A DNA stretch of 54,241 nt from a virus (Duplodnaviria; Caudoviricetes), in IMG/VR virus record IMGVR_UViG_3300037139_000049, positions 1 to 54,241 of that record; one strand, written 5' to 3'. The notes beneath the pieces were generated by a model. It saw nothing but the letters and a program-made list of their open reading frames with translations. It made no database searches and was not told the origin of the DNA. This document shows, piece after piece, positions 16,495 through 32,515 of this stretch. How positions within the stretch are numbered: position 1 is the stretch's first letter; every line of letters begins with the position of its first letter. A program made the position numbers and the translations under genes.

Positions 16495-17006
16495 GCGAGC
16501 GGACCGACGTCGAGGCGGCAGGAGACGGCTACGGCGGGGTCCTGATCCTCCGCAACGTCTCCACGGGCTCGCTGGAGTACCAGCGCACGCCGACGGTGTT
16601 CAAGCCGATCACCGCGGCGATCACCCCCGAATACAAAGGCGAATGGGAAGCCACTAGCCACTACTTCCAGGCAGAATGGACGATCTGGACGCCCGCGACC
16701 GGCAAAAAGTTCAGGGTGCTCGGCTGGTCGCTGTGGGCGTCCGAACACATGCTGCTCGGTATCAAAGACGGCGGCGCGGCCACCGCTGGCACCACGGGCA
16801 TCATCATCCCCGTCTCAAAAGAAGGCAGCCCGGCCAGCACCCCACCGAACTTCGCTAACGGCTACCTGTCCTCCACGGCCGTGAACAAACTGACCCTGTA
16901 CTGCCGTAGCAAAACGGGGACGGGCGCTGAAACCTGCTCGGAAGCCGAAGCCAAAGTCGTCAGCGAATACAAACTCTACGGCTACATCTTCGGGACCGAA
17001 GAGTGA
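16491..17006 (+). CDS. Putative virion structural protein
   Basis: WTPATGKKFRVLG...GYLS.TA.NKL..; position in the head cluster; GAA/AAA-rich. Confidence 0.6.
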   Translation: MSERTDVEAAGDGYGGVLILRNVSTGSLEYQRTPTVFKPITAAITPEYKGEWEATSHYFQAEWTIWTPATGKKFRVLGWSLWASEHMLLGIKDGGAATAGTTGIIIPVSKEGSPASTPPNFANGYLSSTAVNKLTLYCRSKTGTGAETCSEAEAKVVSEYKLYGYIFGTEE

Positions 17007-17037
17007 ACCCACGAACCCATAACGAAGGAGCGAACCA

Positions 17038-18288: not shown

Positions 18289-19176
18289 GTGATGGCAACT
18301 CCCCGCTCGGGCGCTTGCTCACCCTGGCTCGACTCGGCCACCGTCGAAGGGCTGGCGAAGGTCAAGGAAGTCGGGGCGAAGCGGATCGCCGAATCGAAGA
18401 TCACGCAGGAGCAACTCGAAGCCCTCTGTGCGGAAGCGGCCACCGCGGCCAGTGATGTGCTGTACGAGCTCTCGGGCAAAACCTTCACGGGGAACTGCGG
18501 CCCGGTGACGGTACGACCTGTCTCAAGGCCGACAGACGTCGATACGCGGGCGTGGGGGGCGACGCTGTCGACAGTGGGCTGGGTTGCCTCCCAGGGCTTC
18601 GCGTCGGCTTACGGCAGCTTCAACCCTGGCGTGGTGGCCCATTACGGATCGCTCGAGCCGCCGACGATCATCCTGCCCTACCCGGTGACGAAGATCGAAC
18701 AGGTCAAGATCGACGGCATCGAAATCCCCGAAACGGAATACGAACTGCGCGATTTCCGCTCGCTGGTGAGGATTCGCCCGACGGGCTCGACGGTGCCCAA
18801 AGCCCGCTACGGCTGGCCGACATCGCAGATCATGGACCTGCCGGATACCGAACCGGGCACGTTCAGCGTGACCTACCTGTTCGGCAATCCCCCGTCGGCC
18901 GCTGGCATCCTCGCCGCCAAGAAGCTCGCGGAAGTCTATGCGCTCGGGGAGATGATGGGCGACGGCTATCCGAAACGGATCACGTCGATGACCCGCCAGG
19001 GTGTCTCGGCGATGATTACGGACGTGATGGATCTCGTGATGAAGGGCGGCGCAGGCATCTACGAGGTCGAGCTTTTCCTGAACGCTTATAATCCGCACCG
19101 CCTGCAGCGACAGTCGATGGTGTGGAGCCCCGACCTCGGTCGTCCCGGTCGCCGAACGGCTACCCCGAGCACGTAG
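18289..19176 (+). CDS. Head-to-tail adaptor protein
   Basis: ASDVLYELSGKTF.G.C...VRP, VKIDG, WP..Q, TFSVTY..G, P.RITS.TRQGVS, GI.EV..FL...NP. Confidence 0.8.
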   Translation: MMATPRSGACSPWLDSATVEGLAKVKEVGAKRIAESKITQEQLEALCAEAATAASDVLYELSGKTFTGNCGPVTVRPVSRPTDVDTRAWGATLSTVGWVASQGFASAYGSFNPGVVAHYGSLEPPTIILPYPVTKIEQVKIDGIEIPETEYELRDFRSLVRIRPTGSTVPKARYGWPTSQIMDLPDTEPGTFSVTYLFGNPPSAAGILAAKKLAEVYALGEMMGDGYPKRITSMTRQGVSAMITDVMDLVMKGGAGIYEVELFLNAYNPHRLQRQSMVWSPDLGRPGRRTATPST

Positions 19177-19190
19177 GGTAGACTGAGCTC

Positions 19191-19613
19191 ATGTTCGATC
19201 GTCTAGCCAGAGCAGGAGCCACGCCGAAGGAGCTGGCCCAGCTGGAAGCCGAGCAGGCCGAGCGCGCGCTGACCGAGCAGGATGGTTGGCTCGCACGCTT
19301 TGAGCAGATGGCCCACGGGGATCTGGTCGAGTGGCTGGCGAAGATCCGCAAGGCCGGATACTTCAAGGCCAAGAAGGTCGACGATGACACGGAGAAGGTC
19401 CCCGACAAGGAGCACACCAAGGCCGAACTGATCGAGCAGGCCGAGGCTGCCGGGATCGAGGTCCCGAGCGATGCCACGAAGGCCGAGATTGCAGAGTTGC
19501 TTGAGAACCCACCGGAGACGACTGGCCAGGAGGACGAGGGCCAAGCCAGTCAGCAGGGCTCCACAGACGCGCCAGACGCCCCAGGAGCAGACGAGACGCC
19601 TGTAGAGCCGTAG
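19191..19613 (+). CDS. Hypothetical protein with HeH/LEM-like helical motif, own leaderless promoter
   Basis: TKAELIEQAEAAGIEVPSDATKAEIAELL; TAGACT-6nt-ATG. Confidence 0.65.
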   Translation: MFDRLARAGATPKELAQLEAEQAERALTEQDGWLARFEQMAHGDLVEWLAKIRKAGYFKAKKVDDDTEKVPDKEHTKAELIEQAEAAGIEVPSDATKAEIAELLENPPETTGQEDEGQASQQGSTDAPDAPGADETPVEP

Positions 19614-19619
19614 TCCCCC

Positions 19620-20117
19620 GTGCTGGCCTCAGAAGCGGCGCAGGCCCTTCTAAACGCCTTTGTCGCGGAGCTTGAGGCGGTCCCGGGCTTCCAGATGCCC
19701 GAGCGCCGCTATGTCGCACCGGGGCAGATCGCGGTTTGGGACTCAGAACAGCTCGTCGTCAATCTGCAGGAGCTTCCTCGCGGTCAGCCTGAGCAGCCTA
19801 CGAACGCCGCCGGTTGGCCGATTCCGACGGTGCTCAACGCCCGCTTCGCCCTGCAGATCGTGCGCTCGGTGCCGAGCCTTGAGAACGAGGGCATCTCCGA
19901 GTCGATGGTGCCCGACGAAACAGAGCTGAACACGGCGGGCGTCCAGTTCGTCAACGATGCGCAGCAACTATCGCTGGCGGGGCTGGCAGTTCAGGCCGCG
20001 TGGGCGACGAACAACATCGCCGGTCCCGGCCAGTTCGCGCTCGGGCCATGTATGCCGCTTGGTCCCGAGGGTGGATTCGCGGCCAATCAGCTTCTCGTCA
20101 CGGTGGCGCTGTCATGA
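19620..20117 (+). CDS. Putative head-tail connector/tail terminator
   Basis: Position; WD.EQLVV, IVR.VP, PLGPEGG motifs. Confidence 0.65.
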   Translation: MLASEAAQALLNAFVAELEAVPGFQMPERRYVAPGQIAVWDSEQLVVNLQELPRGQPEQPTNAAGWPIPTVLNARFALQIVRSVPSLENEGISESMVPDETELNTAGVQFVNDAQQLSLAGLAVQAAWATNNIAGPGQFALGPCMPLGPEGGFAANQLLVTVALS

Positions 20118-20539
20118 GCACAGTCAAGCTCGTGGTTGACGGAGCGCGTATGGCCGAGGTGCTGCGCGGCCCGGCGGGTCCCGTGACTAGGCACATACAG
20201 GAGCGCGCGTTCATCGTCCGGGAGGCCGCCCGTGCCAAAGCTCCGGTCAAGAGCGGCTGTTTGCGAAGCAGCATCGTGGTCCGCTACGAGGATCACGTCG
20301 GAGGAGTGGCCGCGCGCATCGTTGCGGATACAACGGCTTGCTCACCCGACCGCAAGAGCTACGCGCTGTTCGTACACAACGGAACCAAACCGCACGTCAT
20401 CCAGGGCAATCCAACGCTCGCGTTCTTCTGGCCGAACGGACCCGACGGAGCGGGCATGTACTACTTCGGCTCGGTCAATCATCCGGGCACTAAGGCCAAC
20501 CCATTCCTCGCCGACGCTTTGCCGTTGGCCGTCGTCTGA
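20114..20539 (+). CDS. HK97 gp10-like tail completion protein
   Basis: APVKSG.LR.SI, YALFVHNGTKPH.I, VNHPGTKANPFL. Confidence 0.8.
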   Translation: MSTVKLVVDGARMAEVLRGPAGPVTRHIQERAFIVREAARAKAPVKSGCLRSSIVVRYEDHVGGVAARIVADTTACSPDRKSYALFVHNGTKPHVIQGNPTLAFFWPNGPDGAGMYYFGSVNHPGTKANPFLADALPLAVV

Positions 20540-20549
20540 AAGGAGCAGC

Positions 20550-20999
20550 ATGAGACTAGATCCCATTGGAGTAGTCGACCACCCGGAGCAGATCGACCTA
20601 GAGCCGATCACCATCCCCGTCGTCGGCTACCGCATCAAGGACCGCAAGCCTGTCGAGGAGGAGTTCAACTTCCACGCCTCACGGCCGTGGGGGGTAGTGC
20701 TGGCCCTGTTCGAGTCGGAGACAGAAAAGGAGTTCGCCGAACGCACCATCGGCTGGCTCTCCTACTGCATGTTGAGCGACACCGAACGCGAGCGCTGGAA
20801 GGCGTTCCTGATGCGCGAGGACATCGCCATCGCACAGTCCACCGTGGAGGAGGTCTATAAGGCGCTGGCGGAGACCTACGCTGGCCGCCCTACCCTGCCG
20901 CTTTCCGACTCTTCTGGTGGTGGAAAGCGAACGAAGCAGACATCTCGGGCCGGCTCACGCGCGAGGGCTGCGGCCTCCAACGGCTCCGGCCAGTCATAG
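20550..20999 (+). CDS. Tail assembly chaperone (G-like)
   Basis: AAGGAG SD; upstream of the tape measure; ends GRPT..S.SS.G. Confidence 0.75.
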   Translation: MRLDPIGVVDHPEQIDLEPITIPVVGYRIKDRKPVEEEFNFHASRPWGVVLALFESETEKEFAERTIGWLSYCMLSDTERERWKAFLMREDIAIAQSTVEEVYKALAETYAGRPTLPLSDSSGGGKRTKQTSRAGSRARAAASNGSGQS

Positions 21000-21211
21000 C
21001 TCTGGACGTCCTCTACAGCCTCCTGCTCGATGACCGCCTCGGCCCCGAAGAATCCCGCTACAGGGCGTCCTCGCGCTTGGACGAAGACCTGCTGTGCCCG
21101 CTCGAGGAGAAGGCGGCCGAGGAGTACAGGCGCGAGCGCTGGGGCCTTGAAGATGAGGCGGTCGCGGCATCAGAGAACGTCGACGAGCTATTTCCGGAGT
21201 CGGTGGAGTAG
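20888..21211 (+). CDS. -1 frameshift extension of the tail assembly chaperone (GT-like)
   Basis: CGC-CCT-AC slip site; the -1 frame reads PYPAAFRLFWWWKANEADISGRL...ALDVLYSLL...ESVE* and ends right before the TMP ATG. Confidence 0.7.
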   Translation, partial: PYPAAFRLFWWWKANEADISGRLTREGCGLQRLRPVIALDVLYSLLLDDRLGPEESRYRASSRLDEDLLCPLEEKAAEEYRRERWGLEDEAVAASENVDELFPESVE

Positions 21212-24200
21212 ATGACGGTCGTCGGCACAGCAGAGATCCTGATTGTTCCCGAGACGGCTGGCTTCGCTGCCGCGCTCGAGGGCGAGTCTGCCGCGGGCTT
21301 TGGCAAGGTCAAGTCAGACGCCGAGACGGCAGGCAAGGACGCAGGAGCGAATCTCCGCACGGGCGTCAAGGATGGCACCAAAGGGCTTGAGTCGGACATG
21401 GGCAACGTCGGCAGCGTGGCCGGCGGGAACCTTCGCAAGGGCGTCAAGGATGAGACGGGCAAGCTCGGCTCGGACCTAGAGAAAGACGGGAAAGCTGGCG
21501 GCGAGGGCCTAACGAAAGGCATGTCGGGCGGGCTCGGGAAACTGGCGAACCTGATCTCCAACACGGGCCTGCCGCTCGGAGGATTGAGCTCGGGCCTTGA
21601 GAAGTCGGCAGGGGCCGCTGAGCACGCCGACAAGAGCACCGGGAGCTTTGTGGGGTCGCTCGGGAGTGCCGCCGGCCCGCTCGCTGCGGTGGGCGTTGGG
21701 TTGCTCGCAGGCGGCGGTTACGCAGTCCACCTGGCCGAGGGGATGGAAACGGCCGAGGCGTCCATCGCGGGCGCCGCGGGCACGTCTGTCACCGCGGCTG
21801 ACAAGATCGGTAACGCCCTGCTCGACACGGCTGGCAAGTCCGAGTTCAGCGGCACGGAAATGGCGAAGGCGTATGCGGAAGTCGCCGGCCAACTGAAGGC
21901 GACGGAGGGCCATGCGCTCAGTGCGGGCGAGGCGACGGGGGTTATGACGGCGGCCTCCAATCTCGCAGAGGCAAAGCAGATCGGGCTCGGCGAAGCGACA
22001 TCGACCGTGGCTAAGACGATGCAGGCGTTCCAACTGCCCACGACCCAAGCGGCACATGTCACCGATGTGCTGTTCAACGCATCCAACGCAACCGGGCAGT
22101 CCGTTGAAGGGCTCGCCACGCAGCTCACCAAAGTCAAGTCGAAGCTCGGGGAAATGGCCCCGTCCGTCGGCCAGCTCTCGGGGCTCTTGGTGGACATGAC
22201 CGACCACGGTGTCACTGGCCGTGCGGCGATGACCGGGCTGAACACGGGGCTGAACACGCTGCTCAAAGGCGCAGACGGTGTGACGACGGCCGTCAAGTCG
22301 CAGAACACCGCCTATGAGTCGATGACGCCGCAGCTGAAACACCTTGCCGACGAATACAAAAGCGGCGCGATCTCTGCCACGGCCTTCAAGAAAGAGGCGG
22401 GCGAACTGGCCCCGGCGCAGGCGGGCCTCGCCGAATCGTTCGCTAAGGGCGCGACCGCCGTGCAGACCGCGCAGCTCAAGCAGAAAGAACTCGGCGTCAC
22501 CGTCTTTGACTCGGCCGGCAAGTTCGTCGGCATGGGCTCCGTGATCGACCAGCTCTACCCGAAGTTCCAGAAGATGTCCCAACAGCAGCAGCTCACTACG
22601 GCTTCGACGCTCTTTGGTGCGGGCGCCGCGCGGCAGATGATGACGGTCATCGACGCTGGCCCCGCCGCCTACAACAAAGCCACAGCCTCGGTCGAAAGGC
22701 ACGGCGCCGCTGAGTCGGCCGCTAAGAAGCAGTCGGAAACCCTGCACGGTGAGCTGAAAACGCTTGAGGCCACGCTGGTCGATCTCGGCACGAAGATCGG
22801 CGTTGTGCTCATCCCGGTCGTGACGACGTTCGCGGGTGTGCTGCTGAAAATCATCCCCACGGTTGGGGCAGTGGTGGACTTCATCAAATCCCACTGGGTG
22901 CTCGTCGGCACGATTCTACTCGGGCCGATAGTCCCCACCATCGCCGCCTTCACCGTCTGGAAATCGAAACTCGAAAGCATCTTCACCGAGATCGTGAGCT
23001 GGATCAAGAACGCTTGGCATACCGTCGAAACAGACACGAGCCATCTAGTCGGCAGCATCGTCAGCTTCTTCACCAGCCTGCCGGGGAAAGTGATCTCGCC
23101 CCTCAAGGCCATCCCCGGCGACATCGTGCAGCTATGGGACAAAGTGGAAGGTGGTGTCTCAACGCTGATGACCAACATCGGCAAGTTCTTCTCAGAACTG
23201 CCGAGCCACATCATCGGCGATCTGAAAGCGCTACCGGGCGACATGCTCCACCTGGGAGAAGAACTTGGGGAAGAGCTGGTCAAGGGAGTCGAAAAGTTCG
23301 CAGAAAAGATCGAGCACGCTATCACGAACCCCGTCGAAGAAGCGGTCAAGGCGATCGAATCGCTCAACCCGTTCGGCGGTGGCGGTGGGAGCAGCCCGAC
23401 AACAGGCGGCGCCACGGCCGGTGTCACGGGCACCACGCAGGCCACCGGCACCAGCGCGGGGATGGTAAAGGCCCTAGAAGCCTCCGGCCTCTCTGCCAAC
23501 GCCGCACAGGGGATTGTCGCCGCCTACGGGGCCGAAGGCGGGACGAACACAGCAGAAGATCCGAAAGAAGGCGCGTATGGGAAAGCCCAGTGGGTCGGCT
23601 CCCGGAAGACGGCGCTCGGGCAGTTCGCAGCCTCCAAACACGAACCGATCTCATCCGAAAAGGCGCAGCTGGAATTCACCGCCAAGGAGATCAAGGAACG
23701 CGGGGAAACGGGCGAGCTGAACAAGGCCAAGTCGCCGAAGGAAGCCGCGGACCTGTTCATCAAAAGCTTCGAGCATCCAGCATCACCAGCGACCGTAGAA
23801 GGGCGTGTGAACGCATCGAGTCGCCCGGCCGCCGCAAAGCATACGGAAGCGACCACGAAGAACACCGCCGCTGTCGAACACAACACGGCTGCACACACCA
23901 AAGCCAAAGGCACGAAAGCCGAAGCGAGCCTCCCCGGTGGGGTGACAACGGCCGGTGAAGCCACCACGTCCACGGGTGCGGTCACGAAGGCCGGGGTTGC
24001 AAAGGAGGTGGCCCAGCAGAAGCAGGCACTCGCCGACTGGGTAGCCAAGATGCAGGCCGAGGCGAAGAACGGCAGCAAGGATCAGAAAGCCGCCATCGCC
24101 CAGGAGATCGCCGACCGCAAGGCTTACATAGCACGGCTGATCGCCGACGAGAAGGCCGGGCTCACCGTGACGCAGGCCGCTCAGAAAGAGAAGGCCAAGG

Positions 24201-25033
24201 CCGAAGTGGCACTCAAGTCCTCCGGTGAAAAGGAACTCACGAAGCTCCAGGGCGCGCTCACGTCGGGAAGTCTTGCCACGTTGAACAAGACACTGACGGC
24301 CACGCATGAGCGGGCGCTCGCGGCCATCGAGGGCAAGCTGGTAGGCACGCACAAGGCCGCTCTCGAAAAGCTCGACGCGGAGCTCGGCAAGACGTGGAAA
24401 GAGGCCGAGGCCAAGAAAGCCTCAGACGAACGCACGGAACGCGCGACGGCCGAGGCTGATGCTGCCACCGCCAACCGTGAAGCCTACGAAGCCAAAGAAG
24501 CGGCCGATCAGAAGATCCGCGAAGAATACATCTCGCTTGAGGCGGCGCAGATCACCAAGAACACCACCCTCGCCACCGACCAGTCCGATGCCGTTGTGCA
24601 GGGGATTCAGGACTCGACGAAGGTCGCCCTGGACAAGCAGGCCGAGGTCGGACTCACGGGCACCGCTGAGATCGCCGCGCGCCTGCAAACCGTGCTCGAT
24701 GAAGTCACAGGCGAACAGAACCAGGCAGTAGACGCGGCGAAGCTCGCGGCGGACAACGCCCAGGGTACGGGAGCCATCTCCGAAGCCCAGGCGGCGGCGC
24801 ACTTGGCTGAAGTCGAATCGAACGCCAAGCGTCTCGAGGCTGAAGCGCAGGCGAAGGAGGAAATCGCCAAAGGCACAGTGTCCACGGCCGCAGGAGCGAC
24901 CCCTGGCCCCAGTATCACCCTGAATCTCTACGGCAACGCGAACATGACCTCAACAGAGTGGATGACCGAGGTCGGCTGGACGCTCAAGACCGGTGAACTG
25001 CCAGCCCCGACACCTACGGCGCTGCCTGCCTGA
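21212..25033 (+). CDS. Tape measure protein with phage tail lysozyme-like domain
   Basis: 1273 aa Ala/Gly-rich; TMP motif GVTVFDSAGKFVGM; lysozyme-like GLS.NAA.GI....AE...AYG.AQW.G.R..L. Confidence 0.9.
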   Translation: MTVVGTAEILIVPETAGFAAALEGESAAGFGKVKSDAETAGKDAGANLRTGVKDGTKGLESDMGNVGSVAGGNLRKGVKDETGKLGSDLEKDGKAGGEGLTKGMSGGLGKLANLISNTGLPLGGLSSGLEKSAGAAEHADKSTGSFVGSLGSAAGPLAAVGVGLLAGGGYAVHLAEGMETAEASIAGAAGTSVTAADKIGNALLDTAGKSEFSGTEMAKAYAEVAGQLKATEGHALSAGEATGVMTAASNLAEAKQIGLGEATSTVAKTMQAFQLPTTQAAHVTDVLFNASNATGQSVEGLATQLTKVKSKLGEMAPSVGQLSGLLVDMTDHGVTGRAAMTGLNTGLNTLLKGADGVTTAVKSQNTAYESMTPQLKHLADEYKSGAISATAFKKEAGELAPAQAGLAESFAKGATAVQTAQLKQKELGVTVFDSAGKFVGMGSVIDQLYPKFQKMSQQQQLTTASTLFGAGAARQMMTVIDAGPAAYNKATASVERHGAAESAAKKQSETLHGELKTLEATLVDLGTKIGVVLIPVVTTFAGVLLKIIPTVGAVVDFIKSHWVLVGTILLGPIVPTIAAFTVWKSKLESIFTEIVSWIKNAWHTVETDTSHLVGSIVSFFTSLPGKVISPLKAIPGDIVQLWDKVEGGVSTLMTNIGKFFSELPSHIIGDLKALPGDMLHLGEELGEELVKGVEKFAEKIEHAITNPVEEAVKAIESLNPFGGGGGSSPTTGGATAGVTGTTQATGTSAGMVKALEASGLSANAAQGIVAAYGAEGGTNTAEDPKEGAYGKAQWVGSRKTALGQFAASKHEPISSEKAQLEFTAKEIKERGETGELNKAKSPKEAADLFIKSFEHPASPATVEGRVNASSRPAAAKHTEATTKNTAAVEHNTAAHTKAKGTKAEASLPGGVTTAGEATTSTGAVTKAGVAKEVAQQKQALADWVAKMQAEAKNGSKDQKAAIAQEIADRKAYIARLIADEKAGLTVTQAAQKEKAKAEVALKSSGEKELTKLQGALTSGSLATLNKTLTATHERALAAIEGKLVGTHKAALEKLDAELGKTWKEAEAKKASDERTERATAEADAATANREAYEAKEAADQKIREEYISLEAAQITKNTTLATDQSDAVVQGIQDSTKVALDKQAEVGLTGTAEIAARLQTVLDEVTGEQNQAVDAAKLAADNAQGTGAISEAQAAAHLAEVESNAKRLEAEAQAKEEIAKGTVSTAAGATPGPSITLNLYGNANMTSTEWMTEVGWTLKTGELPAPTPTALPA

Positions 25034-25995
25034 TGCCCTTCCCGAGCCCCAGTGCCTTCACACCGTCCCTCTCGCTGTATCAGATGAGCTACCGCGGCGT
25101 GGAATTCGGCGGGATCGCAAAAGGCACAAACCAGGCGCTCATCAAGCTCACCAAAGGCCGCGAGCCGCCACCCGTCGTTTCTGGTGATGTGCAGCGCGCG
25201 CTCGATCAGGGCGAGTTTGCAGGGCTCGATCTGCTACCCGGCAAAGACGTGGAATTGGAACAGGTCATCATGAGCTCGACGGAAGGTGGGCTGGACCTAC
25301 AGCTCCAGCAACTAGCGAGCGTGCTGAGCCTCGGCCAGGTTGAGGTGCCGCTCTACCTCAAACTGCCCTCGGGCACCTACGCCTGTATGGCGAAGCCCCG
25401 CAAGCACGCGCCCGTAACGGCAGGGGTGGACGTGACAACGATCGTAGGACGCCCTCACGCAGGGCTATGGGCCACGCTGCTGCACTGCACCGACCCGCGC
25501 TGGTACGCCGTGCCGACGAAAACCATGACCGTTGGCCTACCCACCCCCGCCGGTGGGTTGGAATTCCCTGTTGCCTTCAACGCCTCGTTCGGCGGCGGCG
25601 GGACAGGGAGCCTCCTGGAACTCTCCAACCTCGGCAACTTCGAGATGCGCCCGGTGCTGATCATCAAAGGGCCATGCACGAATCCGGTCGTCACGAACCT
25701 CTCGCTTCCGGGCGAACCCTATGTCGGGTTCAACATCACCTTGGCGGAAGGCGACGTGCTGGAAGTCAAGATGGACTTCGAGAGCGTGCTTTACACGCCG
25801 TCCGGGTCACCCGGTGGGTCATCGCGGCGCAGTACGCTCATGCCCGGCTCGACGTGGTGGAACTTGCCGACCGTGAGCGAAGTTGAGGAACATGCCGCAG
25901 AAGGCGCCAACAAGATTCGGTTCACGAGCAGCGACGGCATCGCGGTCGCGGGCACGCTGACCATCAACTACGCAAGCGCCTACTCGGGAATATGA
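25033..25995 (+). CDS. Distal tail (Dit-like) minor tail protein
   Basis: Follows the TMP; CTDPRWY, N.GN...PV..I.GP..NP. Confidence 0.75.
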   Translation: MPFPSPSAFTPSLSLYQMSYRGVEFGGIAKGTNQALIKLTKGREPPPVVSGDVQRALDQGEFAGLDLLPGKDVELEQVIMSSTEGGLDLQLQQLASVLSLGQVEVPLYLKLPSGTYACMAKPRKHAPVTAGVDVTTIVGRPHAGLWATLLHCTDPRWYAVPTKTMTVGLPTPAGGLEFPVAFNASFGGGGTGSLLELSNLGNFEMRPVLIIKGPCTNPVVTNLSLPGEPYVGFNITLAEGDVLEVKMDFESVLYTPSGSPGGSSRRSTLMPGSTWWNLPTVSEVEEHAAEGANKIRFTSSDGIAVAGTLTINYASAYSGI

Positions 25996-27260
25996 CTCCT
26001 ACCACCCACCAGAATCCCTTCACGTATCTCGCCTATGACGCGATGACGATGGCCGAGCTCGACCCGCTGCCCTACACCGGGCCAGTACCATTTTCACGCC
26101 AGGTCAACGCTGCGGGATCGTGGGGTGGCGCGCTGCCAATCGAGGCTCCCGAACTTGAGGTGTCGAACTTCCTCGGCTCATCGAATACGGGGCGCACGCT
26201 GCTATTCGTGGACTACGCGGGAATCCTCGTGTGGGGCGGGATGCTGTGGACTCGGCGGTATAAGAAATCAGAACGTAAGCTGGTCATCGGGGCCTCGGAG
26301 ATGCACTCCTACTGGGGCCAGCGGTTGCAGGCCAAGGACTATTCGACCTACTGGGAACCGAGCGGCGTGGCTGGCGAAACGAGCCCGCTTGAAATCGTCA
26401 AAAAGCTCGTCGAAGATGCGAAGGAACGCGAACACAAACTGATCGAAGAAGCTACCGGCACGGGCCGCTATATCGCGGGCGGCATCACCGTTCAAACCAA
26501 CTACTCCGAAGCCTACACAGCAGCCCCACCGATCAGTGTCAGCTACCCCTCGACGCAGTTGCAGACGATCGATTCGATCATGCAGACGCTCTCGCAGATG
26601 GGCTACGGGGCGGGCTACGACTACTCCTACGACGCCTCCTACAAACCGGGCACCAAAGAACCTGAAATCACCCTGAACCTGTGGTTCCCGCGCATGGGCC
26701 GGCGGGCAGCGCAGTCGGGCATCGTGATCCTCGACAAGAACTGCATCGACTCGGAATACCCGGAGGACTCAACCCAGCAGGCCGACTCGATCCACGTCAC
26801 GGGCTCAGGCTCGGGTGGCATCCAGCCGGACGAAGCGACCGCAGATAACGTCTTGCAGGCTGGCTACCCGTTGCTCGAGGCAATGGTGTCTCACACGCAG
26901 ATCAACAATCAGTCTGTGCTCGCCGATGTGTCGCTCGGGGAACTGGCGATGAGGGCATGGCCGGTTGTGACGCCCACGGTCGAACTGCCGATCCCGTTGC
27001 CAAACCCGGAAACCGGAGCGCTGAACCCGGACCTGCTGACGTTCGGCAGCTTCAACCTCGGCGACGATCTGATCTACCGTGTGGATCCGGTGGCCGCAGG
27101 CATGAACAGCGACCCGCGCTGGCCTAAAGGGCACGACTTCGAGTGGCGCATAAACTCGTGGACCGCTACCGTGAACGAAAAGGGCGTGCCCGTGCTGCTG
27201 CTTGACTTCGCGCTACCGCCGATCGAGGAAATCCCCGGTCCGATGCCTCCTCTCGAATAG
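25992..27260 (+). CDS. Minor tail/baseplate hub protein
   Basis: WGG.LW.R, AGYP.LE, F.LGD motifs; position. Confidence 0.75.
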   Translation: MTPTTHQNPFTYLAYDAMTMAELDPLPYTGPVPFSRQVNAAGSWGGALPIEAPELEVSNFLGSSNTGRTLLFVDYAGILVWGGMLWTRRYKKSERKLVIGASEMHSYWGQRLQAKDYSTYWEPSGVAGETSPLEIVKKLVEDAKEREHKLIEEATGTGRYIAGGITVQTNYSEAYTAAPPISVSYPSTQLQTIDSIMQTLSQMGYGAGYDYSYDASYKPGTKEPEITLNLWFPRMGRRAAQSGIVILDKNCIDSEYPEDSTQQADSIHVTGSGSGGIQPDEATADNVLQAGYPLLEAMVSHTQINNQSVLADVSLGELAMRAWPVVTPTVELPIPLPNPETGALNPDLLTFGSFNLGDDLIYRVDPVAAGMNSDPRWPKGHDFEWRINSWTATVNEKGVPVLLLDFALPPIEEIPGPMPPLE

Positions 27261-28553
27261 ATGCCTGCCACGATCCAACCCGCCCGCAACGGCTTTCGAC
27301 AGATGGTCCGCGAACCCGCGCAGGCGGCACGGGCGCAGGCCACGCAGCAGCTCCACGTCGTCACTGACCCGACAGAAGCCAGCGGCGATCCGGTGCATGG
27401 GCACGCCACGGTGGTCATCGGGCCGCTGGCGGCGATCACGGGCCTCTCGGGGTTCGGCGTGGCGGTCTACACGAGCGGCAAATGGGTCCAGGTCACGGGC
27501 GGCGGCGGTGGTGGGGGTGGCGAAGAATACAAAGCCGGGGAAGGGCTTACAGAATCCGGCTCCAAACCCGTCGAATTCAAGATCAAAGCCCTAGGCATCG
27601 CCACGGGGATGTACGCCGCTGGCTCGATCACCACGACCAAGCTGGCGGAAGGGACGGTCACGCTCGAAAAGCTGTCCTCGGCGGTGCAGACCAAACTCGG
27701 GGAAATCAAAGCCTACACGGCTAAAGCGGCGGGCGGCCTGGAACTCTCGGGTACGGAATTCCTCGTCAAAGCCGAAGGCATCACGAACGCGATGATCGTG
27801 GCCGCCGCAGGTATCCCCGAATCGAAGCTGTCGCTGCCGGAAATGGTCAAACTGACGGGCACGCAGACGGTCACGGGCACCAAGAAATTCATCACGCCGA
27901 CACCCGCCTCCACCAGCAGCAGGGCAGGGACGAACTCCATAGAAGCGATCAAGGTCGAAACGGGTGCAGGTGGGGTCAGCACCAATGTTGAATCGACGGG
28001 AGGCAACTCTGCGCCTGTCATCGTAAAAGTGGGCGCAGGAGCAGCTTCCACCGGCTCAACGAGGGCACGCGGCGGCAATAGTGGCGAAATATCCCTGCAG
28101 ATAGGTGCCGGTGGGGCAGCGACCTCCTCGGCGGGGGAAAGCTACGGAGGGGTAGGGGGACCGTTCAGTTTCAACGCTGGCGCCGGCGGTGCGGCGCTCG
28201 GCAAAGGCGAAGAAAACGAAGGCGGCGAAGGCGGCGCTTTCGTGTTCGGTGCGGGTAAAGGCGGGGAAGCCAAAAACGGAACGGAAGCCAACGTAGGAGG
28301 GAAAGGCGGCAACCTGACATTCAGCGCTGGTGGTGGTGGTGCAGCCGCGGGGACGGGCGCAAAAGTAGGAGCTTCGGGCGTCATCAAATTCAACTTCGGC
28401 TACGCATACTTTGAAAAAAGCATTGGGGTGTGGAACGTGACTGCGCCAACGTCGCAGCACGCAGCGATAACTAACCCCACGACGCTGCTCGAAGTCGCCG
28501 CGGCCTTCAAAGAACTCAACGAAGTCGTCAAAGCCTACGGGCTCACGAAATAG
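27261..28553 (+). CDS. Tail fibre / minor tail protein, Gly-rich
   Basis: Fibre motifs Y.AG.GL, GSITTTKLA, QTVTG.K.F; Gly-rich C-terminal repeats. Confidence 0.75.
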   Translation: MPATIQPARNGFRQMVREPAQAARAQATQQLHVVTDPTEASGDPVHGHATVVIGPLAAITGLSGFGVAVYTSGKWVQVTGGGGGGGGEEYKAGEGLTESGSKPVEFKIKALGIATGMYAAGSITTTKLAEGTVTLEKLSSAVQTKLGEIKAYTAKAAGGLELSGTEFLVKAEGITNAMIVAAAGIPESKLSLPEMVKLTGTQTVTGTKKFITPTPASTSSRAGTNSIEAIKVETGAGGVSTNVESTGGNSAPVIVKVGAGAASTGSTRARGGNSGEISLQIGAGGAATSSAGESYGGVGGPFSFNAGAGGAALGKGEENEGGEGGAFVFGAGKGGEAKNGTEANVGGKGGNLTFSAGGGGAAAGTGAKVGASGVIKFNFGYAYFEKSIGVWNVTAPTSQHAAITNPTTLLEVAAAFKELNEVVKAYGLTK

Positions 28554-28561
28554 GAAGACTC

Positions 28562-28783
28562 ATGGCTCAAGCGGAACTAGCCGTCGCCTACAACATCAAG
28601 AAAGCGGCAGTCGACCCCTACGTCAAAGCGTTCTGTGCGCTCACGGGGCAGCCCGAACCGCCCAAGGGCGAAGTCACGGTGCCCGAGTTCCATTCACTGC
28701 TCCGCGCGGTGATGAACAAGGTGGAAGGCGACTATCAGCGCGCGAACTTCGTCCCGGTCCCTGCGGAAGGGGCGAACGAATGA
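28562..28783 (+). CDS. Hypothetical protein (possible fibre chaperone)
   Basis: AGGA SD; follows the fibre gene. Confidence 0.65.
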   Translation: MAQAELAVAYNIKKAAVDPYVKAFCALTGQPEPPKGEVTVPEFHSLLRAVMNKVEGDYQRANFVPVPAEGANE

Positions 28784-30123: not shown

Positions 30124-31023
30124 ATCACCGTCGCGGCCATCCCAGCGTACATTCAGTCCGGCTCCCACAGCAGCCAGCTATTCAGACAGGCGATCTCCTC
30201 GCTGTTGAACTCGGCCGGCGGGACGGTAGGCGCCGGTGGCCTTCTCGTCAGCGAACACGTCGCAGCGAACATGAGCGTGAACGTGCTTGGCGGTGCGCCG
30301 GAAAAAGGCGGCATCTGGGTCCCCGGTACGAGCTCCGCTGGTATCCAGGGCGAGTATTACGGCTGGAACGAAAGCACGACCAACGTCGGTATCAGCGCAT
30401 CCTCGGCGTCCAACAACCGCACCGATCAGATCGTTGCGCAGGTCAAGGATGCGTTCTACGCCGGGGCCGAATCCCTGTTCACGCTCTCCTATGTCGCGGG
30501 CACAGCCGAAGCGGGCGTCACGAAAGAAAACCACAAAGGTGCGGGGGCGCTTCCGGCTAGCTCGTTGCTCTTGGCCTACGTGTTTGTGGAAGCCAGCGTG
30601 GCGTCGATCACGAATGCGGCGATCACGAACGTTGTAGCTCAGGCGACCCCTGGCGTAACTGGCGCTAGTTACCGAGAAGGCACTGCACGGCCAGCAGCTG
30701 CGGTCAAAGGGCGCGTCTACTACGCCACCGACACAAAGACCTTCTCAGTCGACTCGGGGTCCGCGTGGCTCCCGATCTCACGGGTGGCGACATACGGGGC
30801 CACGGCCGAAGGTATCTCTGGGACTGGGCTCCTGATCACCGAAAGCCGCACGCATGTCTGGGTTGGATGCTCAGCCGTGCTCACCGAAATCAACGTGGGC
30901 GGTGTCCAGCTGAACATTGAAGGCAGCCCCCACAACGCCTCGTTTATCGTCGACGTGGGGCAGGAATTCGCCGTGAAAACGACCGGCGGCGTGAACTACA
31001 AGTACAACCTCAAGCTCTTCTAG
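30124..31023 (+). CDS. Minor tail protein; start uncertain (ATC 30124 or TTG 30205)
   Basis: Open frame from 30118 reading ITVAAIPAYIQSGSHSSQLFRQ; MSVNV..G, RTD.IVA.V.D..Y, LPASSLLLA.V.V motifs. Confidence 0.75.
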   Translation: MTVAAIPAYIQSGSHSSQLFRQAISSLLNSAGGTVGAGGLLVSEHVAANMSVNVLGGAPEKGGIWVPGTSSAGIQGEYYGWNESTTNVGISASSASNNRTDQIVAQVKDAFYAGAESLFTLSYVAGTAEAGVTKENHKGAGALPASSLLLAYVFVEASVASITNAAITNVVAQATPGVTGASYREGTARPAAAVKGRVYYATDTKTFSVDSGSAWLPISRVATYGATAEGISGTGLLITESRTHVWVGCSAVLTEINVGGVQLNIEGSPHNASFIVDVGQEFAVKTTGGVNYKYNLKLF

Positions 31024-32300
31024 CGCACTTCCACGCTCGCGCTCGGCCCCGCCTCGTCTCCGTAATGCGAATCCGCCGAGGCATACCCAACGTTCACAGG
31101 GTAGTCACCCGCCTTGGGGTACACAAGCGAGCACTGAGCAACAGCCTGCCCCGAGCCGTTGAATACTTCGCTGCAGTCCGCTGAGCCGTCGAGATCGTTC
31201 GTCGTTTCAGCATCCGGGGCGGTGAAGGCCATGAAGCCGAGTGGGGTTTCGTCACCGGGGAAGTTGCCGGTGGCGGCGGCTTTGAGGATGAGCCGTTCGC
31301 CCACGTTGAGGATGATGGGGTCCGGCGGGGCGCCCTTGCCGAACGTCCCGGCCCTGCCGCTGGTCCCAATCTCCCAGCCCGCCCACGAGAGGGTGGCCGC
31401 GTAGGCCGTGACCTTCGGGATGATCGGCAGGCTCTCGGGCGCCCATTCTTCTGTGAGCTGGCGTTCGCCGTTCGGAGCGACCAGTTGGGTGATCGTCGCG
31501 CCCGTGCCGCCGGGGTAGTTGACCGTGAGGCTCGAGGGCGTTCCGAGCATCGAACAGGAGGCTTCATAGTCAGACACCTGTGCTTGGCAACTCTGGCCTT
31601 CCTGATCTTCAATCCCGACCGAGGCCGCTCCTTGCCAATTCGGCGAGGTCAAGGTGATCTGAGCGGTCCCGTTTTCAACGGTGGCCTTGGCGCTCGGTGC
31701 GGGCCATGCTTTCGTGATCGTCGCAGCCGGTGGCTCGATCCGGTCGACCTCGCCCTCGGTGGCGCTCAGGCCACCTGAGACGTATGCGGTGATGACCGAG
31801 TGGTTGCCGTAGGAGGAATAGAGCACGGGGCACTGGCCGCCGTTGGCTGGCCCTCCGACGTTGATCGCGCACTCAAGGCTGCCGTCGGAGTAGAGGAACA
31901 GGATTCCGCTCGGGAGGTTCTGTTCGGCCACGTCCCCGATGCTCGCGCTGGCAGAGAAGCTGTAGGTCACGCTAAGCGCGTCTGAGGGGTCCTGCTTGAA
32001 GGTTGGGTCCAGGTGGGCGTGGAGGGCCACAGGGGGCACGGGAGCGGGCGCAGGGGCCGCAATGGCCGGTTCGGGCACAATGACGATTTCCTCGATGGCC
32101 GGGGCCTTGGCCTTCGGTGCGATGTAGACGCAGAGCGTTCGCTTGACGCGGTGGCCGTGGACCTTGACGTGCTCGACGCGCTTCCAGTAGTGGACGCGGC
32201 AGTGTTCGTGCTTTGGGTGGTGCAGGACGTAGGACTTGCCTTCTGCCAGCGCGGGGAACGCGAGGGCGGCGAGGAGGAGGGCTGGGAGCAGGCGTCTCAT
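31020..32300 (-). CDS. Secreted beta-rich (Ig-like) protein
   Basis: Signal peptide MRRLLPALLLAALAFPALA, His/Lys-rich segment, Cys-paired beta domains. Confidence 0.75.
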   Translation of the reverse strand: MRRLLPALLLAALAFPALAEGKSYVLHHPKHEHCRVHYWKRVEHVKVHGHRVKRTLCVYIAPKAKAPAIEEIVIVPEPAIAAPAPAPVPPVALHAHLDPTFKQDPSDALSVTYSFSASASIGDVAEQNLPSGILFLYSDGSLECAINVGGPANGGQCPVLYSSYGNHSVITAYVSGGLSATEGEVDRIEPPAATITKAWPAPSAKATVENGTAQITLTSPNWQGAASVGIEDQEGQSCQAQVSDYEASCSMLGTPSSLTVNYPGGTGATITQLVAPNGERQLTEEWAPESLPIIPKVTAYAATLSWAGWEIGTSGRAGTFGKGAPPDPIILNVGERLILKAAATGNFPGDETPLGFMAFTAPDAETTNDLDGSADCSEVFNGSGQAVAQCSLVYPKAGDYPVNVGYASADSHYGDEAGPSASVEVR

Positions 32301-32515
32301 GGCTCTTTCCAATCGCGCGCCGCACGGACCATCGCTTCCATCGGTACGGCTAGGCGCTCACCGAGATTGCGTCCGAGCTCGTCAACGGCTTGTCTGAGCT
32401 TCTCGGCTTCCTCGAAGTACGTTGGCTGCGAGGGTCCGCGTAGAAACAGCACACCGATGATCCATCCGCCGATCAGGCCAAGCACGATGGCCGACACGAT
32501 CGCCAGCGCGATCAT
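32297..32515 (-). CDS. Small membrane protein
   Basis: N-terminal TM helix; ATGA overlaps. Confidence 0.65.
   Translation of the reverse strand: MIALAIVSAIVLGLIGGWIIGVLFLRGPSQPTYFEEAEKLRQAVDELGRNLGERLAVPMEAMVRAARDWKEP

Follow-up and report, generated by a model that had tools for sequence, protein, structure and literature searches.

A site-by-site partition of Glu and Lys codons in the virion genes of an uncultured soil phage and its relatives

Synonymous codons are normally taken as interchangeable within a gene, and conserved rare-codon effects are usually weak and statistical. Sense-codon reassignment is detected from column profiles by Codetta-type inference. Aragones 2010 and Pinto 2018 are said to be the sources for the rare codons of the HAV capsid. 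According to passages of PMC6735747, rare codons in the HAV capsid region are taken as slowing elongation to tune capsid folding. U34-modified tRNAs reading AAA, GAA and CAA are reportedly connected (PMC9366759, PMC11546939 and PMC13191261) with codon-biased translation in eukaryotes and some RNA viruses. For major-codon preference and accuracy selection, sections of PMC7374057 describe a codon choice that differs between conserved and variable sites and depends on the Glu and Lys isoacceptors present. Within the scope of our literature search, a Glu/Lys-specific, site-conserved codon partition in phages was not described.

Here we describe such a pattern in a soil phage (W), whose 54,241 nt form the window, that is, the whole stretch of DNA analyzed. 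As in HAV, the virion genes of W keep host-unfavoured codons, the host assignment here being based on binning and labels, and the deviation is conserved among relatives. Unlike HAV, the pattern is confined to the Glu and Lys codon pairs, is site-specific despite saturated synonymous sites, comes with extra Glu and Lys residues, shows discrete presence or absence among related phages, and is known from sequences alone. It resembles the U34-tRNA systems in that A-ending split-box codons stand apart from the rest and are enriched in viral genes, but it differs in that W is a DNA phage of a bacterial host, that CAA is involved in one genome only, and that positional conservation lies outside that model. 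The major-codon and accuracy effects described in PMC7374057 are small and touch many amino acids, whereas the site classes here differ by 13-19% versus 59-62% GAA, and in Glu/Lys only. Unlike under accuracy selection, the non-optimal codon greatly exceeds its background level at variable sites, and some invariant sites retain GAA. As in sense-codon reassignment, the synonymous codons behave as non-equivalent in alignments, but a consistent alternative residue and a dedicated tRNA are both missing, and at invariant sites GAA stands opposite GAG-Glu.

The gene at 27261-28553 likely encodes a distal tail protein, fibre or receptor-binding. The C-terminal half of the product is Gly-rich, the gene lies directly downstream of the tape measure, Dit-like and minor-tail genes, and residues 1-80 are 46% identical to an ORF of the provirus contig G002 located after its minor-tail gene. 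The protein had no PHROG match and no Pfam match; nine metagenomic homologues were found, some with PF07484, PF18338 or PF24146. Deposited phages gave no match to the structural region (megablast) or the fibre (tblastn), the viral contigs searched contained no fibre relative, and none was found with the fibre query in G006, the genome of the candidate host. Parts of the fibre were covered by independent contigs of other runs with 0 differences, and these runs may share one sampling campaign. Runs X2-X5 represent nearly one genotype (0-1 differences, except for one divergent short contig) and offer few variants for GAA/GAG flips.

An exact count over the whole ORF gave 30 GAA and 0 GAG for Glu, 21 AAA and 6 AAG for Lys, and 1 CAA and 10 CAG for Gln. 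Asp occurs twice, at residues 36 and 43 only, and Arg seven times (residues 9, 13, 17, 24, 221, 268 and 270), three of them beyond residue 43; the hand counts of an earlier note on this DNA were thus exact. The probability of 30/30 GAA by chance is 6e-7 at the GAA share of the virion block (0.62) and 2e-13 at that of the genome (0.38), and the fibre is the extreme of the GAA/AAA pattern among the W genes. The note had also placed AAG at the Lys residues of familiar fibre motifs, and this was borne out: AAG-Lys (K107, K127, K137, K189, K208 and K231) were conserved at 26 of 41 aligned residues of the homologues, as compared with 49 of 170 for AAA-Lys (p 9e-5). Its further suggestion, that AAA and GAA occupy positions usually held by Thr, Asp or Asn, applied to K209 and K91, both AAA and opposite Thr/Ser, but not to the Glu motifs (KLADG, YTAG[DNT]GL, GLTLSG). 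The nearest homologues keep Glu at E94 (5/7), E161 (8/9), E166 (6/9) and E187 (6/9), as judged at the protein level, and have no Asp opposite E130.

Across W, GAA/AAA is preferred by one contiguous virion block and three genes outside it, and GAG/AAG by the remaining genome (Table 1), in accordance with the earlier claim that non-structural genes use mostly GAG/AAG.

Table 1. Features of W with their Glu and Lys codon counts; genes other than the target are GC3-based heuristic calls (50 ORFs), with small genes partly missed.
Feature	Position	Strand	Description	GAA/GAG	AAA/AAG
Target gene	27261..28553	+	intact 430-codon ORF, 430 aa; likely fibre / receptor-binding protein	30/0	21/6
GAA/AAA-rich virion block	15157..28783	+	pooled counts	196/101	104/123
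Block gene	15157	+	capsid-associated		
Block genes	16491 and 28562	+	members of GAA/AAA-rich virion block		
Block gene	17038	+	major tail	24/6	
Block gene	18289	+	head-tail adaptor		
Block gene	21212	+	tape measure; mixed	58/46	
Block gene	25033	+	Dit-like		
Block gene	25992	+	minor tail	21/8	
Major capsid gene	13353..15116	+	GAG-rich	14/54	
GAA-type gene outside block	3435..4310	+		12/2	9/6
GAA-type gene	30205..31023	+		13/1	
GAA-leaning gene	31020..32312	-		18/9	2/12
Contrast gene	45409..47664	+	helicase + N6/N4 DNA methylase fusion; GAG/AAG type	6/60	1/29

Heterogeneity among the genes was strong for Glu (chi2 254.6, df 40, p 5e-33) and Lys (chi2 104, df 33, p 3e-9), with p 0.02 for Gln. 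When the GAA-type genes were compared with the rest of W, Glu (p 1e-40) and Lys (p 8e-11) differed strongly, Leu (p 9e-5) and Gly (p 7e-3) were slightly shifted, and the other 14 codon families were alike. GC is 0.61-0.67 along the whole genome, and GC3 of the fibre without its Glu and Lys codons is 0.80, which agrees with the earlier view that this is no low-GC foreign island. The N-terminal ~145 residues encoded at 30205..31023 are homologous to post-tail-gene ORFs of G2, G3, G4 and G6, so the product is probably a distal tail protein. The major capsid gene is a counter-example to any simple rule of 'virion protein' or 'expression level'; its residues 1-225 are nearly pure GAG/AAG, and its GAA sites cluster in residues 229-569. 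The rule for virion-surface proteins put forward earlier therefore holds approximately, and fails for the GAG-rich capsid and the mixed tape measure. Local GC content or expression level, which the note had considered as explanations, did not account for GAA/AAA usage, local A3 and GC3 being unchanged and the capsid being GAG-rich. The per-gene GAA/GAG ratios recur in the orthologues of the relative G2 (capsid 14/54 vs 14/45, major tail 24/6 vs 18/7, minor tail 21/8 vs 21/7). CAA is raised in G2 only, with 6/9 and 8/9 in tail genes vs 4/23 in the capsid, and p 0.05 for conserved vs variable sites. RAA codons are depleted within the first 60 codons (38/53 vs 321/205), which runs counter to classical 'ramp' ideas.

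The choice between GAA and GAG was retained at individual positions among relatives whose proteins are about 50-55% identical. The Glu codon tables showed strong association in every pair (W-G2 66/10/21/110, p 1e-24; W-G3 49/12/12/87, p 2e-18; G2-G3 49/14/10/83, p 6e-18; W-G6 54/13/14/74, p 2.5e-16). For Lys the association was also found (W-G3 17/11/6/33, p 2e-4; G2-G3 10/3/10/43, p 1.5e-4; W-G6 16/8/7/36, p 5e-5), and was weaker for W-G2 (p 0.04). As controls at conserved residues, 4-fold codon identity was 0.37-0.48 vs 0.33-0.40 expected, and Gln, Asp and Asn codons were at chance between genomes, the sole exception being Asp of G2-G3 (13/19/12/73, p printed as 0.00). Among the 112 columns that are Glu in W, G2 and G3, GAA counts of 0, 1, 2 and 3 occurred in 59, 16, 8 and 29 columns, as compared with 30, 50, 27 and 5 expected from the binomial; Gln columns of the same genomes agreed with the binomial. 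Regional codon runs alone were ruled out as the cause: Glu concordance fell from 0.88 at the aligned site to 0.62 when the closest adjacent Glu site was taken instead, none of 5000 local block permutations reached 86, and runs tests were mostly non-significant. Third-base identity flanking GAA-GAA sites (0.50-0.52) was the same as that flanking GAG-GAG sites and near chance. Taken together, these comparisons of aligned genes show that GAA/GAG choice is held site by site like an amino-acid difference, and the Lys pair less strongly, mostly in virion genes. The earlier suspicion that GAA/AAA is distinct from GAG/AAG was supported in this respect, other synonymous sites being randomised.

The dialect, as we call this usage, was examined in five independent genomes of two clades (W, G2, G3, L061 and G6; L059 and L063 are duplicates of G2 and G3, respectively). 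Among related phages the trait is bimodal and maps on the tree as a single change. That it might be a general actinophage trait was ruled out by Gordonia phage GMA2. Virion proteins of dialect genomes contain 7.4-7.8% E and 4.5-5.3% K, as compared with 4.1-5.6% E and 0.5-1.8% K in the same proteins of the non-dialect G4 and G5; the Glu/Lys richness proposed earlier was thus found, as a lineage-specific surplus of Glu and Lys, not of Asp or Arg. Glu conserved in G4 are 81-87% GAG, and the other Glu are 59-62% GAA. The non-dialect clade has Glu in just 6-13% of GAA columns vs 42-50% opposite GAG; this clade did not convert GAA to GAG, suggesting that the codon, not the residue, mattered. The GAA/AAA sites neighbour K, N, G, T and S, and are variable within the family. 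Since most of these positions are poorly conserved in the wider family, they are presumably exposed; this 'surface' placement derives from conservation and neighbouring residues, as the AF2 prediction for the 15157 protein, made from five aligned sequences, was unusable at a mean pLDDT of 35.

The host is probably a member of Solirubrobacterales. A phage-like contig, G006:C1, shows the same dialect and lies inside a Solirubrobacterales MAG by metagenomic binning, and several family members are labelled Solirubrobacteraceae in the NCBI listing. The phage family was present in one of 301 sampled genomes of this order, namely G006 itself. A host search over genome contigs with a two-sequence alignment profile found nothing, and the ends of G002 carried no recognisable host genes, their 10 ORFs giving one phage lysozyme, along with one tRNA-Ser. 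In the G006 MAG, GAA/GAG and AAA/AAG are 3/38 and 1/19 for EF-Tu and 5/42 and 1/22 for EF-G, i.e., 89-95% GAG/AAG, and a 60-kb sample gave 120/786 and 31/360, i.e., GAA 13% and AAA 8% of the Glu and Lys codons. In this incomplete MAG, tRNA-Glu(CUC) and tRNA-Lys(UUU) were found and tRNA-Glu(UUC) was not; tRNAs for Gln, His, Cys and Ile were missing too. The idea that non-dialect hosts lack a U34 tRNA-Glu was not supported by another MAG, G007, which has tRNA-Glu(UUC) and 22% GAA genome-wide.

Several explanations for these data have to be weighed. One holds that GAA/AAA direct a different or modified residue, or are deliberately decoded ambiguously; codons that are 'synonymous' and yet kept site by site are the classical footprint of non-equivalent codons, and GAA sites are seldom opposite Glu in the non-dialect clade. 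However, no single residue dominates opposite GAA, neither in G4 (A 11%, T 10%, E 6%, D 6%, G 6%, gaps 42%) nor across 113 homologues at 19 GAA sites, where the family consensus differs from site to site (over all sites together, E 13%, A 12%, T 10%). At eight GAA sites every other genome has Glu as well, encoded by GAG in G4/G5, terminase e271 (GAA) is Glu even in GMA2, the closest fibre homologues keep Glu at the sites given above, and 5 of 8 GAA sites in EF-Tu/EF-G of the candidate host are Glu in G007. As for a dedicated tRNA, ARAGORN returned only a dubious 'tRNA-Pyl(cta)' in W, Rfam gave 0 hits in the window, and 13 related sequences contained no tRNA-Glu or tRNA-Lys, one tRNA-Ser being their sole tRNA gene; no aaRS-like Pfam match was seen among the 20 window proteins scanned, 10 proteins being scanned with PHROGs. 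GAA and AAA therefore most likely keep their meaning as Glu and Lys, with no changed genetic code, as judged from these alignments; the altered-residue delivery raised in the earlier note was not supported, and we consider recoding scarcely credible. A more ordinary cause would be that the codons follow the optimum of the host, or that the module is foreign and was acquired recently. Phage genomes are mosaic. GAA is, according to part of PMC7374057, enriched in core and highly expressed genes of GC-rich bacteria having only a U34 tRNA-Glu. Nevertheless, the candidate host seldom uses GAA/AAA and has hardly any in EF-Tu, so neither codon optimization nor a foreign island fits, the host being assigned by MAG binning and NCBI labels; the GAG-rich capsid gene and the pure-GAA fibre show no scaling with expression, GC and most codon families are alike in and outside the block, and per-gene ratios recur in G2 orthologues of ~50% identity. 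Only a true host very different from G006 could rescue this account, which the data already contradict and which is extremely improbable. Alternatively, A-rich triplets might be kept as a signal in the nucleic acid itself, for binding of a silencer or nucleoid protein, for mRNA structure, or for avoidance of a GAG/AAG motif. AT skew is indeed positive across the tail genes, and the two remaining frames of the block are somewhat poorer in GAG too (15 and 29 vs 59 and 89 in roughly double the number of codons). Yet 4-fold third positions show no excess of A (0.05-0.12 everywhere; local A3 0.065 vs 0.078), the A-rich codons of Asn, Ile and Thr are not raised either, and CTC, the complement of GAG, is not depleted. 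Where the residue has changed, the third-base A is not retained, and local A3 and GC3 stay the same, which argues against a cause at the nucleotide level. Context of the next base or of an SD-like kind was ruled out, the GAA share in the block being 0.64-0.67 whichever base follows. An avoided motif could also be removed synonymously at conserved Glu sites, which nonetheless remain GAG. We find this signal very unlikely.

A Glu/Lys-rich zwitterionic surface might instead have been selected at the protein level only, leaving the A-ending codons as an incidental outcome of history or of some mutational bias not yet recognised. This would suit the surplus of Glu and Lys over Asp and Arg relative to G4/G5, the balanced charge of the fibre (D+E 32 vs K+R 34), and the neighbours and family-variable positions of the GAA/AAA sites. 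In that case, however, drift of the third base to G would be expected, as happened in Gln (CAG 84-89%), all 4-fold families being randomised, and an equilibrium GAA:GAG ratio should ignore site class, in contrast to the difference between G4-conserved and other Glu. Moreover, certain invariant Glu sites are GAA throughout W, G2 and G3, the non-dialect clade dropped the residues rather than switch to GAG, and no mutational signature was found in context or local composition. This explanation is rather unlikely. RAA codons could also act as a built-in sensor, as in the gated control proposed in the earlier note, virion synthesis being contingent on the abundance or U34 modification of minor tRNA-Glu(UUC) and tRNA-Lys(UUU), with a logic similar to TTA/bldA control in Streptomyces. 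The enrichment is confined to codons of U34 split-box tRNAs and falls mainly in late virion genes; the candidate host makes little use of these codons, and the trait-less clade dropped the residues, as expected were the codon the point. Against this, gating needs many rare codons yet predicts no conservation of exact positions, the capsid, as the most abundant virion protein, is largely exempt, and scans of 27 window proteins with PHROGs or Pfam revealed no gene for tRNA modification. Such a sensor is distinctly doubtful. A related proposal, which we regard as unlikely though a little less so than strict gating, is that GAA/AAA were planted at tolerant virion-protein sites with Glu/Lys as the price, and that virion synthesis or folding would report on, or depend on, abundance, charging and U34 thiolation of the two tRNAs. 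If true, the phage would sense the physiology of its host at the codon level through the planted GAA/AAA. In a form of this proposal bolder still, deliberate low-fidelity decoding at these sites would give chemically heterogeneous virion surfaces.

We prefer, with the chances for and against it about balanced, the reading that GAA and AAA carry standard Glu and Lys and that position-specific selection keeps these host-rare codons, which would be read by minor U34 tRNAs. GAA (~4%) and AAA (~2% of virion-gene codons) would form a separate codon layer held position by position, and this layer would rest on a 'core' of GAG-Glu (about 3.6-4%) common to relatives lacking it. Because both codons are infrequent in the candidate host and avoided in its EF-Tu, selection appears to act on the host-rare codon as such, and we infer that the selected property may be decoding by the minor isoacceptors tRNA-Glu(UUC) and tRNA-Lys(UUU). 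By analogy with the rare codons of the HAV capsid, the most likely purpose would be to set local elongation kinetics while virion proteins are made and folded. No enrichment is seen for further A-ending codons that are rare in the host (GGA, ACA, GCA and others), so a kinetic account must assume that only the Glu and Lys U34 tRNAs are slow enough to matter. Less likely purposes would be a dependence of virion synthesis on the state of those tRNAs, or use of an under-used charged tRNA pool, for which the models of charged-tRNA supply in parts of PMC12799730 are a precedent. Load sharing among charged tRNAs was judged weak as the main driver, Glu being 7.8% in W virion proteins and 7.5% in the host average.

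An uncultured soil phage clade thus carries a near-binary partition of two codon pairs that has survived while other synonymous sites were randomised. It offers an unusually clean natural system for the role of position-specific rare codons, whether in kinetics and folding, tRNA-state sensing or charged-tRNA supply, and indicates that amino-acid composition, here the extra Glu and Lys, and codon choice can evolve as one package. Host prediction from codon usage can be misled by such a pattern, and codon-'optimising' these virion genes for expression might damage them.

The target ORF directly follows the minor tail gene, and its protein itself has no PHROG or Pfam match. Its counterpart in a related contig matches residues 1-80, and nine metagenomic homologues share the repeat region or the Gly-rich C-terminal part. 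By position and architecture, we infer a distal tail fibre or receptor-binding protein. The earlier note had proposed from this gene that GAA/AAA may be functionally distinct from GAG/AAG, and its counts were exact: 30 GAA and no GAG, 21 AAA and 6 AAG, Asp only at residues 36 and 43 and 3 Arg beyond residue 43, with a GC3 of 0.80 when Glu and Lys codons are left out. Gln is encoded by 1 CAA and 10 CAG. Conserved Glu residues of the fibre are also GAA, namely E161 (Glu in 8/9 homologues), E166 (6/9) and E187 (6/9). With the GAA share of the genes nearby, 30/30 GAA would still have a probability of only 6e-7, and chance is excluded or unlikely as the cause of the pattern.

Features of the window, with gene identities taken from PHROG and Pfam matches
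Feature	Coordinates	Strand	Basis or remark
Terminase ORF, Terminase_6N	337-1236	+	Pfam
100-aa ORF between terminase halves	1423-1725
Terminase ORF, Terminase_6C	1780-2460	+	Pfam
Further GAA-type gene	3435-4310
Major capsid protein	13353-15116		PHROG/Pfam
Capsid residues 1-225	13353-14030	+
Stretch compared among runs (20 kb)	13353-33352
Short divergent contig	14530-14867
Contiguous GAA-type block	15157-28783
Major tail protein	17038-18288		PHROG/Pfam
Head-tail adaptor	18289-19176		PHROG/Pfam
ARAGORN call, 96 bases	20541-20636	-
Tape measure, 1273 aa	21212-25033		PHROG/Pfam
Dit-like protein	25033-25995		PHROG/Pfam
Minor tail protein	25992-27260		PHROG/Pfam
Target ORF, 430 aa	27261-28553	+
Further GAA-type gene	30205-31023
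Further GAA-type gene	31020-32312	-
Cysteine peptidase and metallophosphatase genes	37054-38900	+	PF00112, PF00149
NHL-repeat/SMP-30-like ORF, 195 aa	52452-53039	+	Weak matches
Non-structural: PD-(D/E)XK nuclease, helicase-methylase fusion, RusA, papain-like peptidase, metallophosphatase			PHROG/Pfam

The pattern is a genome-wide partition and not a single-gene property. Among 50 ORFs, picked by a GC3/GC2 heuristic, codon use was heterogeneous between genes for Glu (chi2 254.6, df 40, p 5e-33) and Lys (p 3e-9), and slightly for Gln (p 0.02). The contiguous block has GAA/GAG of 196/101 and AAA/AAG of 104/123, the three further GAA-type genes have pooled values of 43/12 and 16/22, and the remaining genes 157/488 and 57/238. 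The GAA and AAA shares of individual genes are correlated (rho 0.78, n=22). GAA-type genes differed from the rest in Glu (p 1e-40), Lys (p 8e-11), Leu (p 9e-5) and Gly (p 7e-3), with no difference in the other 14 codon families, and A at four-fold third positions was 0.05-0.12 in all genes of at least 100 codons (a few short ORFs reached up to 0.23). This family-by-family comparison and the flat four-fold A exclude a foreign island and generic codon optimisation; adaptation to host-optimal codons is likewise excluded or unlikely. The 54,241-base window spans the complete record of this genome. Its GC content is about 64% along the entire length, and the plus strand carries nearly all genes. 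The first 60 codons of GAA-type genes are depleted in GAA and AAA (38 against 53 GAG/AAG, as compared with 321/205 downstream, p 8e-4), which is the reverse of a rare-codon "ramp". Since the major capsid gene is GAG-rich (14/54), using GAG and AAG almost exclusively in residues 1-225, the rule is neither "virion protein" nor "high expression". This N-terminal region is very acidic (about 44 Glu, almost all GAG), and deposited-phage capsids align only from about residue 140-165 onward; it possibly represents a scaffold- or delta-like domain.

Deposited phages were remote relatives only: all 259 capsid records fell below 60% identity, with a maximum of 35% for those of Gordonia, Microbacterium, Arthrobacter and Streptomyces phages. 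Near-unchanged copies of the window occur in peat and permafrost metagenome runs. Across the 20-kb stretch, contigs of four other such runs showed 0-1 differences, except for one short divergent contig; therefore a single genotype is widespread across those samples, although the runs may share one campaign. The two terminase halves are about 540 bases apart, with no intron family found in the gap by Rfam, and both halves lie within one ORF in the related contig G5; the split could be an unrecognised intron, a mobile insert or a genuinely split gene. The ARAGORN call, a "tRNA-Pyl(cta)" in the tail-chaperone region upstream of the tape measure gene, had no Rfam tRNA match at gathering score. A similar call was obtained in GC-rich DNA of the Acidimicrobiales MAG G007, and the call is most likely a false positive. 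The adjoining genes for a papain-family cysteine peptidase and a calcineurin-like metallophosphatase are an unusual pair for a phage, and the matches of the 195-aa ORF, which include gluconolactonase-like ones, suggest a beta-propeller fragment near the genome end.

Relatives were found by scans with capsid, capsid-associated, adaptor and minor-tail proteins. They comprised the viral contigs G2 (46.6 kb, 60.7% GC), G3 (29.6 kb, 63.8%), G4 (36.1 kb, 69%) and G5 (15.7 kb, 70%), a 41.4-kb contig, G6 (67.3% GC), of a MAG titled Solirubrobacterales (G006), a contig of G007 (L020) and six metagenome tail modules (L059-L064). G1 duplicates part of G2, and the minor-tail proteins of L059 and L063 are identical to those of G2 and G3, respectively; none of these was counted as independent, leaving only five independent dialect genomes, that is, genomes with virion genes rich in GAA and AAA. 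Protein identity to the window across shared genes was 0.52-0.58. In G6 the terminase, portal, capsid, major-tail and Dit genes are split over several frames, which looks like assembly indel errors and not real pseudogenes; because of these frameshifts, G6 comparisons were restricted to in-frame segments.

The central result is that the GAA/GAG choice is kept per gene and per site among relatives. GAA/GAG counts in the window and G2, respectively, were 14/54 and 14/45 in the capsid gene, 19/14 and 18/16 in the gene starting at 15157, 24/6 and 18/7 in the major tail gene, 12/6 and 12/4 in Dit, and 21/8 and 21/7 in the minor tail gene. Lys codons behaved in the same way at the level of sites, more weakly.

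Codon pairs at columns with the same residue in both genomes (W, the window), in the order GAA-GAA, GAA-GAG, GAG-GAA, GAG-GAG or the AAA/AAG equivalents
Residue	Genomes	Columns	p
Glu	W-G2	66/10/21/110	1e-24
Glu	W-G3	49/12/12/87	2e-18
Glu	G2-G3	49/14/10/83	6e-18
Glu	W-G6	54/13/14/74	2.5e-16
Lys	W-G3	17/11/6/33	2e-4
Lys	G2-G3	10/3/10/43	1.5e-4
Lys	W-G6	16/8/7/36	5e-5
Lys	W-G2	9/15/9/53	0.04

In the 112 columns with Glu in the window, G2 and G3, GAA occurred 0, 1, 2 or 3 times in 59, 16, 8 and 29 columns, against a binomial expectation of 30, 50, 27 and 5; Gln columns fitted the binomial (36/18/1/0 versus 37/15/2/0). Site tables for Gln, Asp and Asn were at chance, except for Asp in G2-G3 (13/19/12/73, p printed as 0.00). 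Within-gene permutation gave z 6.7 for Glu and -1.2 to 1.5 for other two-fold and four-fold amino acids; Ser (3.8) and Leu (3.1) were raised, as expected of split six-fold boxes. The signal is not merely regional: aligned Glu sites were concordant in 86/98 cases (0.88), as compared with 0.62 for the adjacent conserved-Glu site and 0.56 for the next one, and shuffling within blocks of four successive sites gave 65.9 +/- 3.8, reaching 86 in 0/5000 trials. The GAA share in the block is 64-67% regardless of the next base, and neighbouring-base context or regional composition is excluded or unlikely as the cause. Conserved four-fold residues in the same alignments had identical codons at 0.37-0.48, versus 0.33-0.40 expected from composition. 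Other codons lying up to 15 codons from GAA-GAA sites had a third-base identity of 0.50-0.52, equal to the value near GAG-GAG sites and close to the chance value of 0.45-0.49, so that no young recombination patches are hidden there; residual shared ancestry of synonymous sites is excluded or unlikely. Sites with a changed residue do not keep A as the third base, except in GAA/AAA swaps, and a nucleotide-level requirement for A is also excluded or unlikely.

In shared structural proteins GAG-Glu is constant (3.6, 3.7, 4.0, 3.9 and 4.6% of codons in the window and G2-G5), and GAA (4.2, 3.7, 3.8, 0.2 and 1.0%) and AAA (2.1, 1.4, 1.9, 0.1 and 0.0%) are present as a layer in some genomes only. Columns opposite GAG of the window, G2 and G3 hold Glu at 42-50% in G4 and 34-48% in G5, and those opposite GAA at only 6-13%, the rest being Ala, Thr, Gly, Ser, Asp or a gap, none dominant. 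Within each of these three genomes, Glu conserved in G4 is 81-87% GAG and Glu not conserved there is 59-62% GAA (p 5e-12 to 1e-17). This contrast was weak for Lys, seen for Gln only in G2 and absent from 11 other amino-acid families. When the 15157 protein was compared with 113 homologues, its 14 GAG sites proved to be typical conserved Glu positions (pooled E 58%, D 14%). At its 19 GAA sites just 13% of homologues have Glu, and the consensus varies from site to site (A, G, T, P, L, K, S, Q, R); opposite AAA the family mostly has A, V, I, L or T. The neighbours of GAA-Glu are richer in K, N, G, T and S and poorer in R, D, M and F; together with conservation, this suggests a surface location of GAA/AAA sites. 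The rule that conserved Glu is GAG is not absolute, as adaptor E150, E188 and E215 do not vary among any of the genomes and yet are encoded by GAA in the window, G2 and G3 and by GAG in G4. In the tail genes of G2 (29484-31642) CAA, a third U34-type codon, is raised (Dit 6/9, minor tail 8/9, versus capsid 4/23); it is rare throughout the window.

Tail modules fall into two classes, dialect (GAA 3.7-4.6 and AAA 1.4-2.4 per 100 codons; the window, G2, G3, L061) and non-dialect (0.0-1.0 and 0-0.2; G4, G5, L060, L062, L064). G6 was placed in the former by per-gene GAA/GAG and AAA/AAG ratios and not on the per-100-codon scale, and L020 in the latter by ratios of the same kind, each gene having 0-4 GAA among its 10-57 Glu codons. 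GC content does not set the class: G6 is dialect despite 67.3% GC and an other-codon GC3 of 0.85-0.97, and L060 and L062 are non-dialect at 66.8-67.7% GC and GC3 of 0.90-0.92. Gordonia phage GMA2 (53% GC) showed no codon partition. For the minor-tail protein, an unrooted maximum-likelihood tree (11 rows, 9 distinct) places non-dialect modules in a single cluster (support 88/93) and dialect modules in two well-supported clusters, a distribution that one change on this tree would explain.

The host of dialect phages is a candidate Solirubrobacterales, given the title of G006, and several family members are NCBI-labelled Solirubrobacteraceae, two of them listed on contigs of 332 kb and 2.8 Mb. 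In G006, GAA/GAG and AAA/AAG were 3/38 and 1/19 in EF-Tu, 5/42 and 1/22 in EF-G, and 120/786 and 31/360 in 30 ORFs from 60 kb (64-65% GC). In this incomplete MAG 33 tRNAs were detected, including Glu(CUC) and Lys(UUU), with Gln, His, Cys and Ile tRNAs not seen. G007, which holds a non-dialect relative, has tRNA-Glu(UUC) and uses GAA at 22% genome-wide and 0/37 in EF-Tu. By these counts non-dialect virion genes resemble highly expressed host genes, and dialect genes retain a host-rare codon at defined sites. Of the eight GAA sites in EF-Tu and EF-G of G006, five are Glu (GAG) in G007, indicating that the candidate host reads GAA as Glu.

The core of the earlier proposal is thus supported by the clade-wide, site-specific partition. 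Its suggestion of an altered residue at GAA/AAA was not supported, given the absence of a dominant residue opposite GAA and the invariant Glu at adaptor GAA sites, and reassignment to another residue is excluded or unlikely. What remains is position-specific selection separating GAA from GAG and AAA from AAG. A Glu/Lys-coated surface, selected at the protein level only, would account for the extra residues but leaves the third base unexplained. In the non-dialect clade the residues disappeared and GAA did not give way to GAG, which suggests that the codon, not Glu or Lys, is the selected unit. Only the U34 isoacceptor reads the A-ending codon of each pair; its G-ending partner relies mainly on the C34 isoacceptor. 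This decoding arrangement is the only known property common to both pairs and absent from unaffected families. According to PMC7374057, whether GAA or GAG is preferred depends on which of these tRNAs a bacterium has.

We rank translation-kinetic selection first, in which conserved rare codons would slow elongation and tune the folding of virion proteins. Its weaknesses are that other rare A-ending codons are not enriched and that CAA joins only in G2. The closest precedent comes from the hepatitis A virus capsid, whose conserved rare codons are interpreted in PMC6735747 as acting in this way. Gating, a dependence of virion-protein synthesis on tRNA state, is ranked lower. Use of an under-used charged-tRNA pool, an idea touched on in PMC12799730, also ranks lower and is a weak motive because total Glu demand resembles that of the candidate host. 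Our literature search found no published description of such a site-specific Glu/Lys codon partition. The original observation is confirmed and can be widened: Glu and Lys codons are partitioned site by site throughout the clade, a pattern akin to conserved rare codons of virion genes or to codon-biased decoding by U34 tRNAs, for which translation-kinetic selection is a candidate mechanism.
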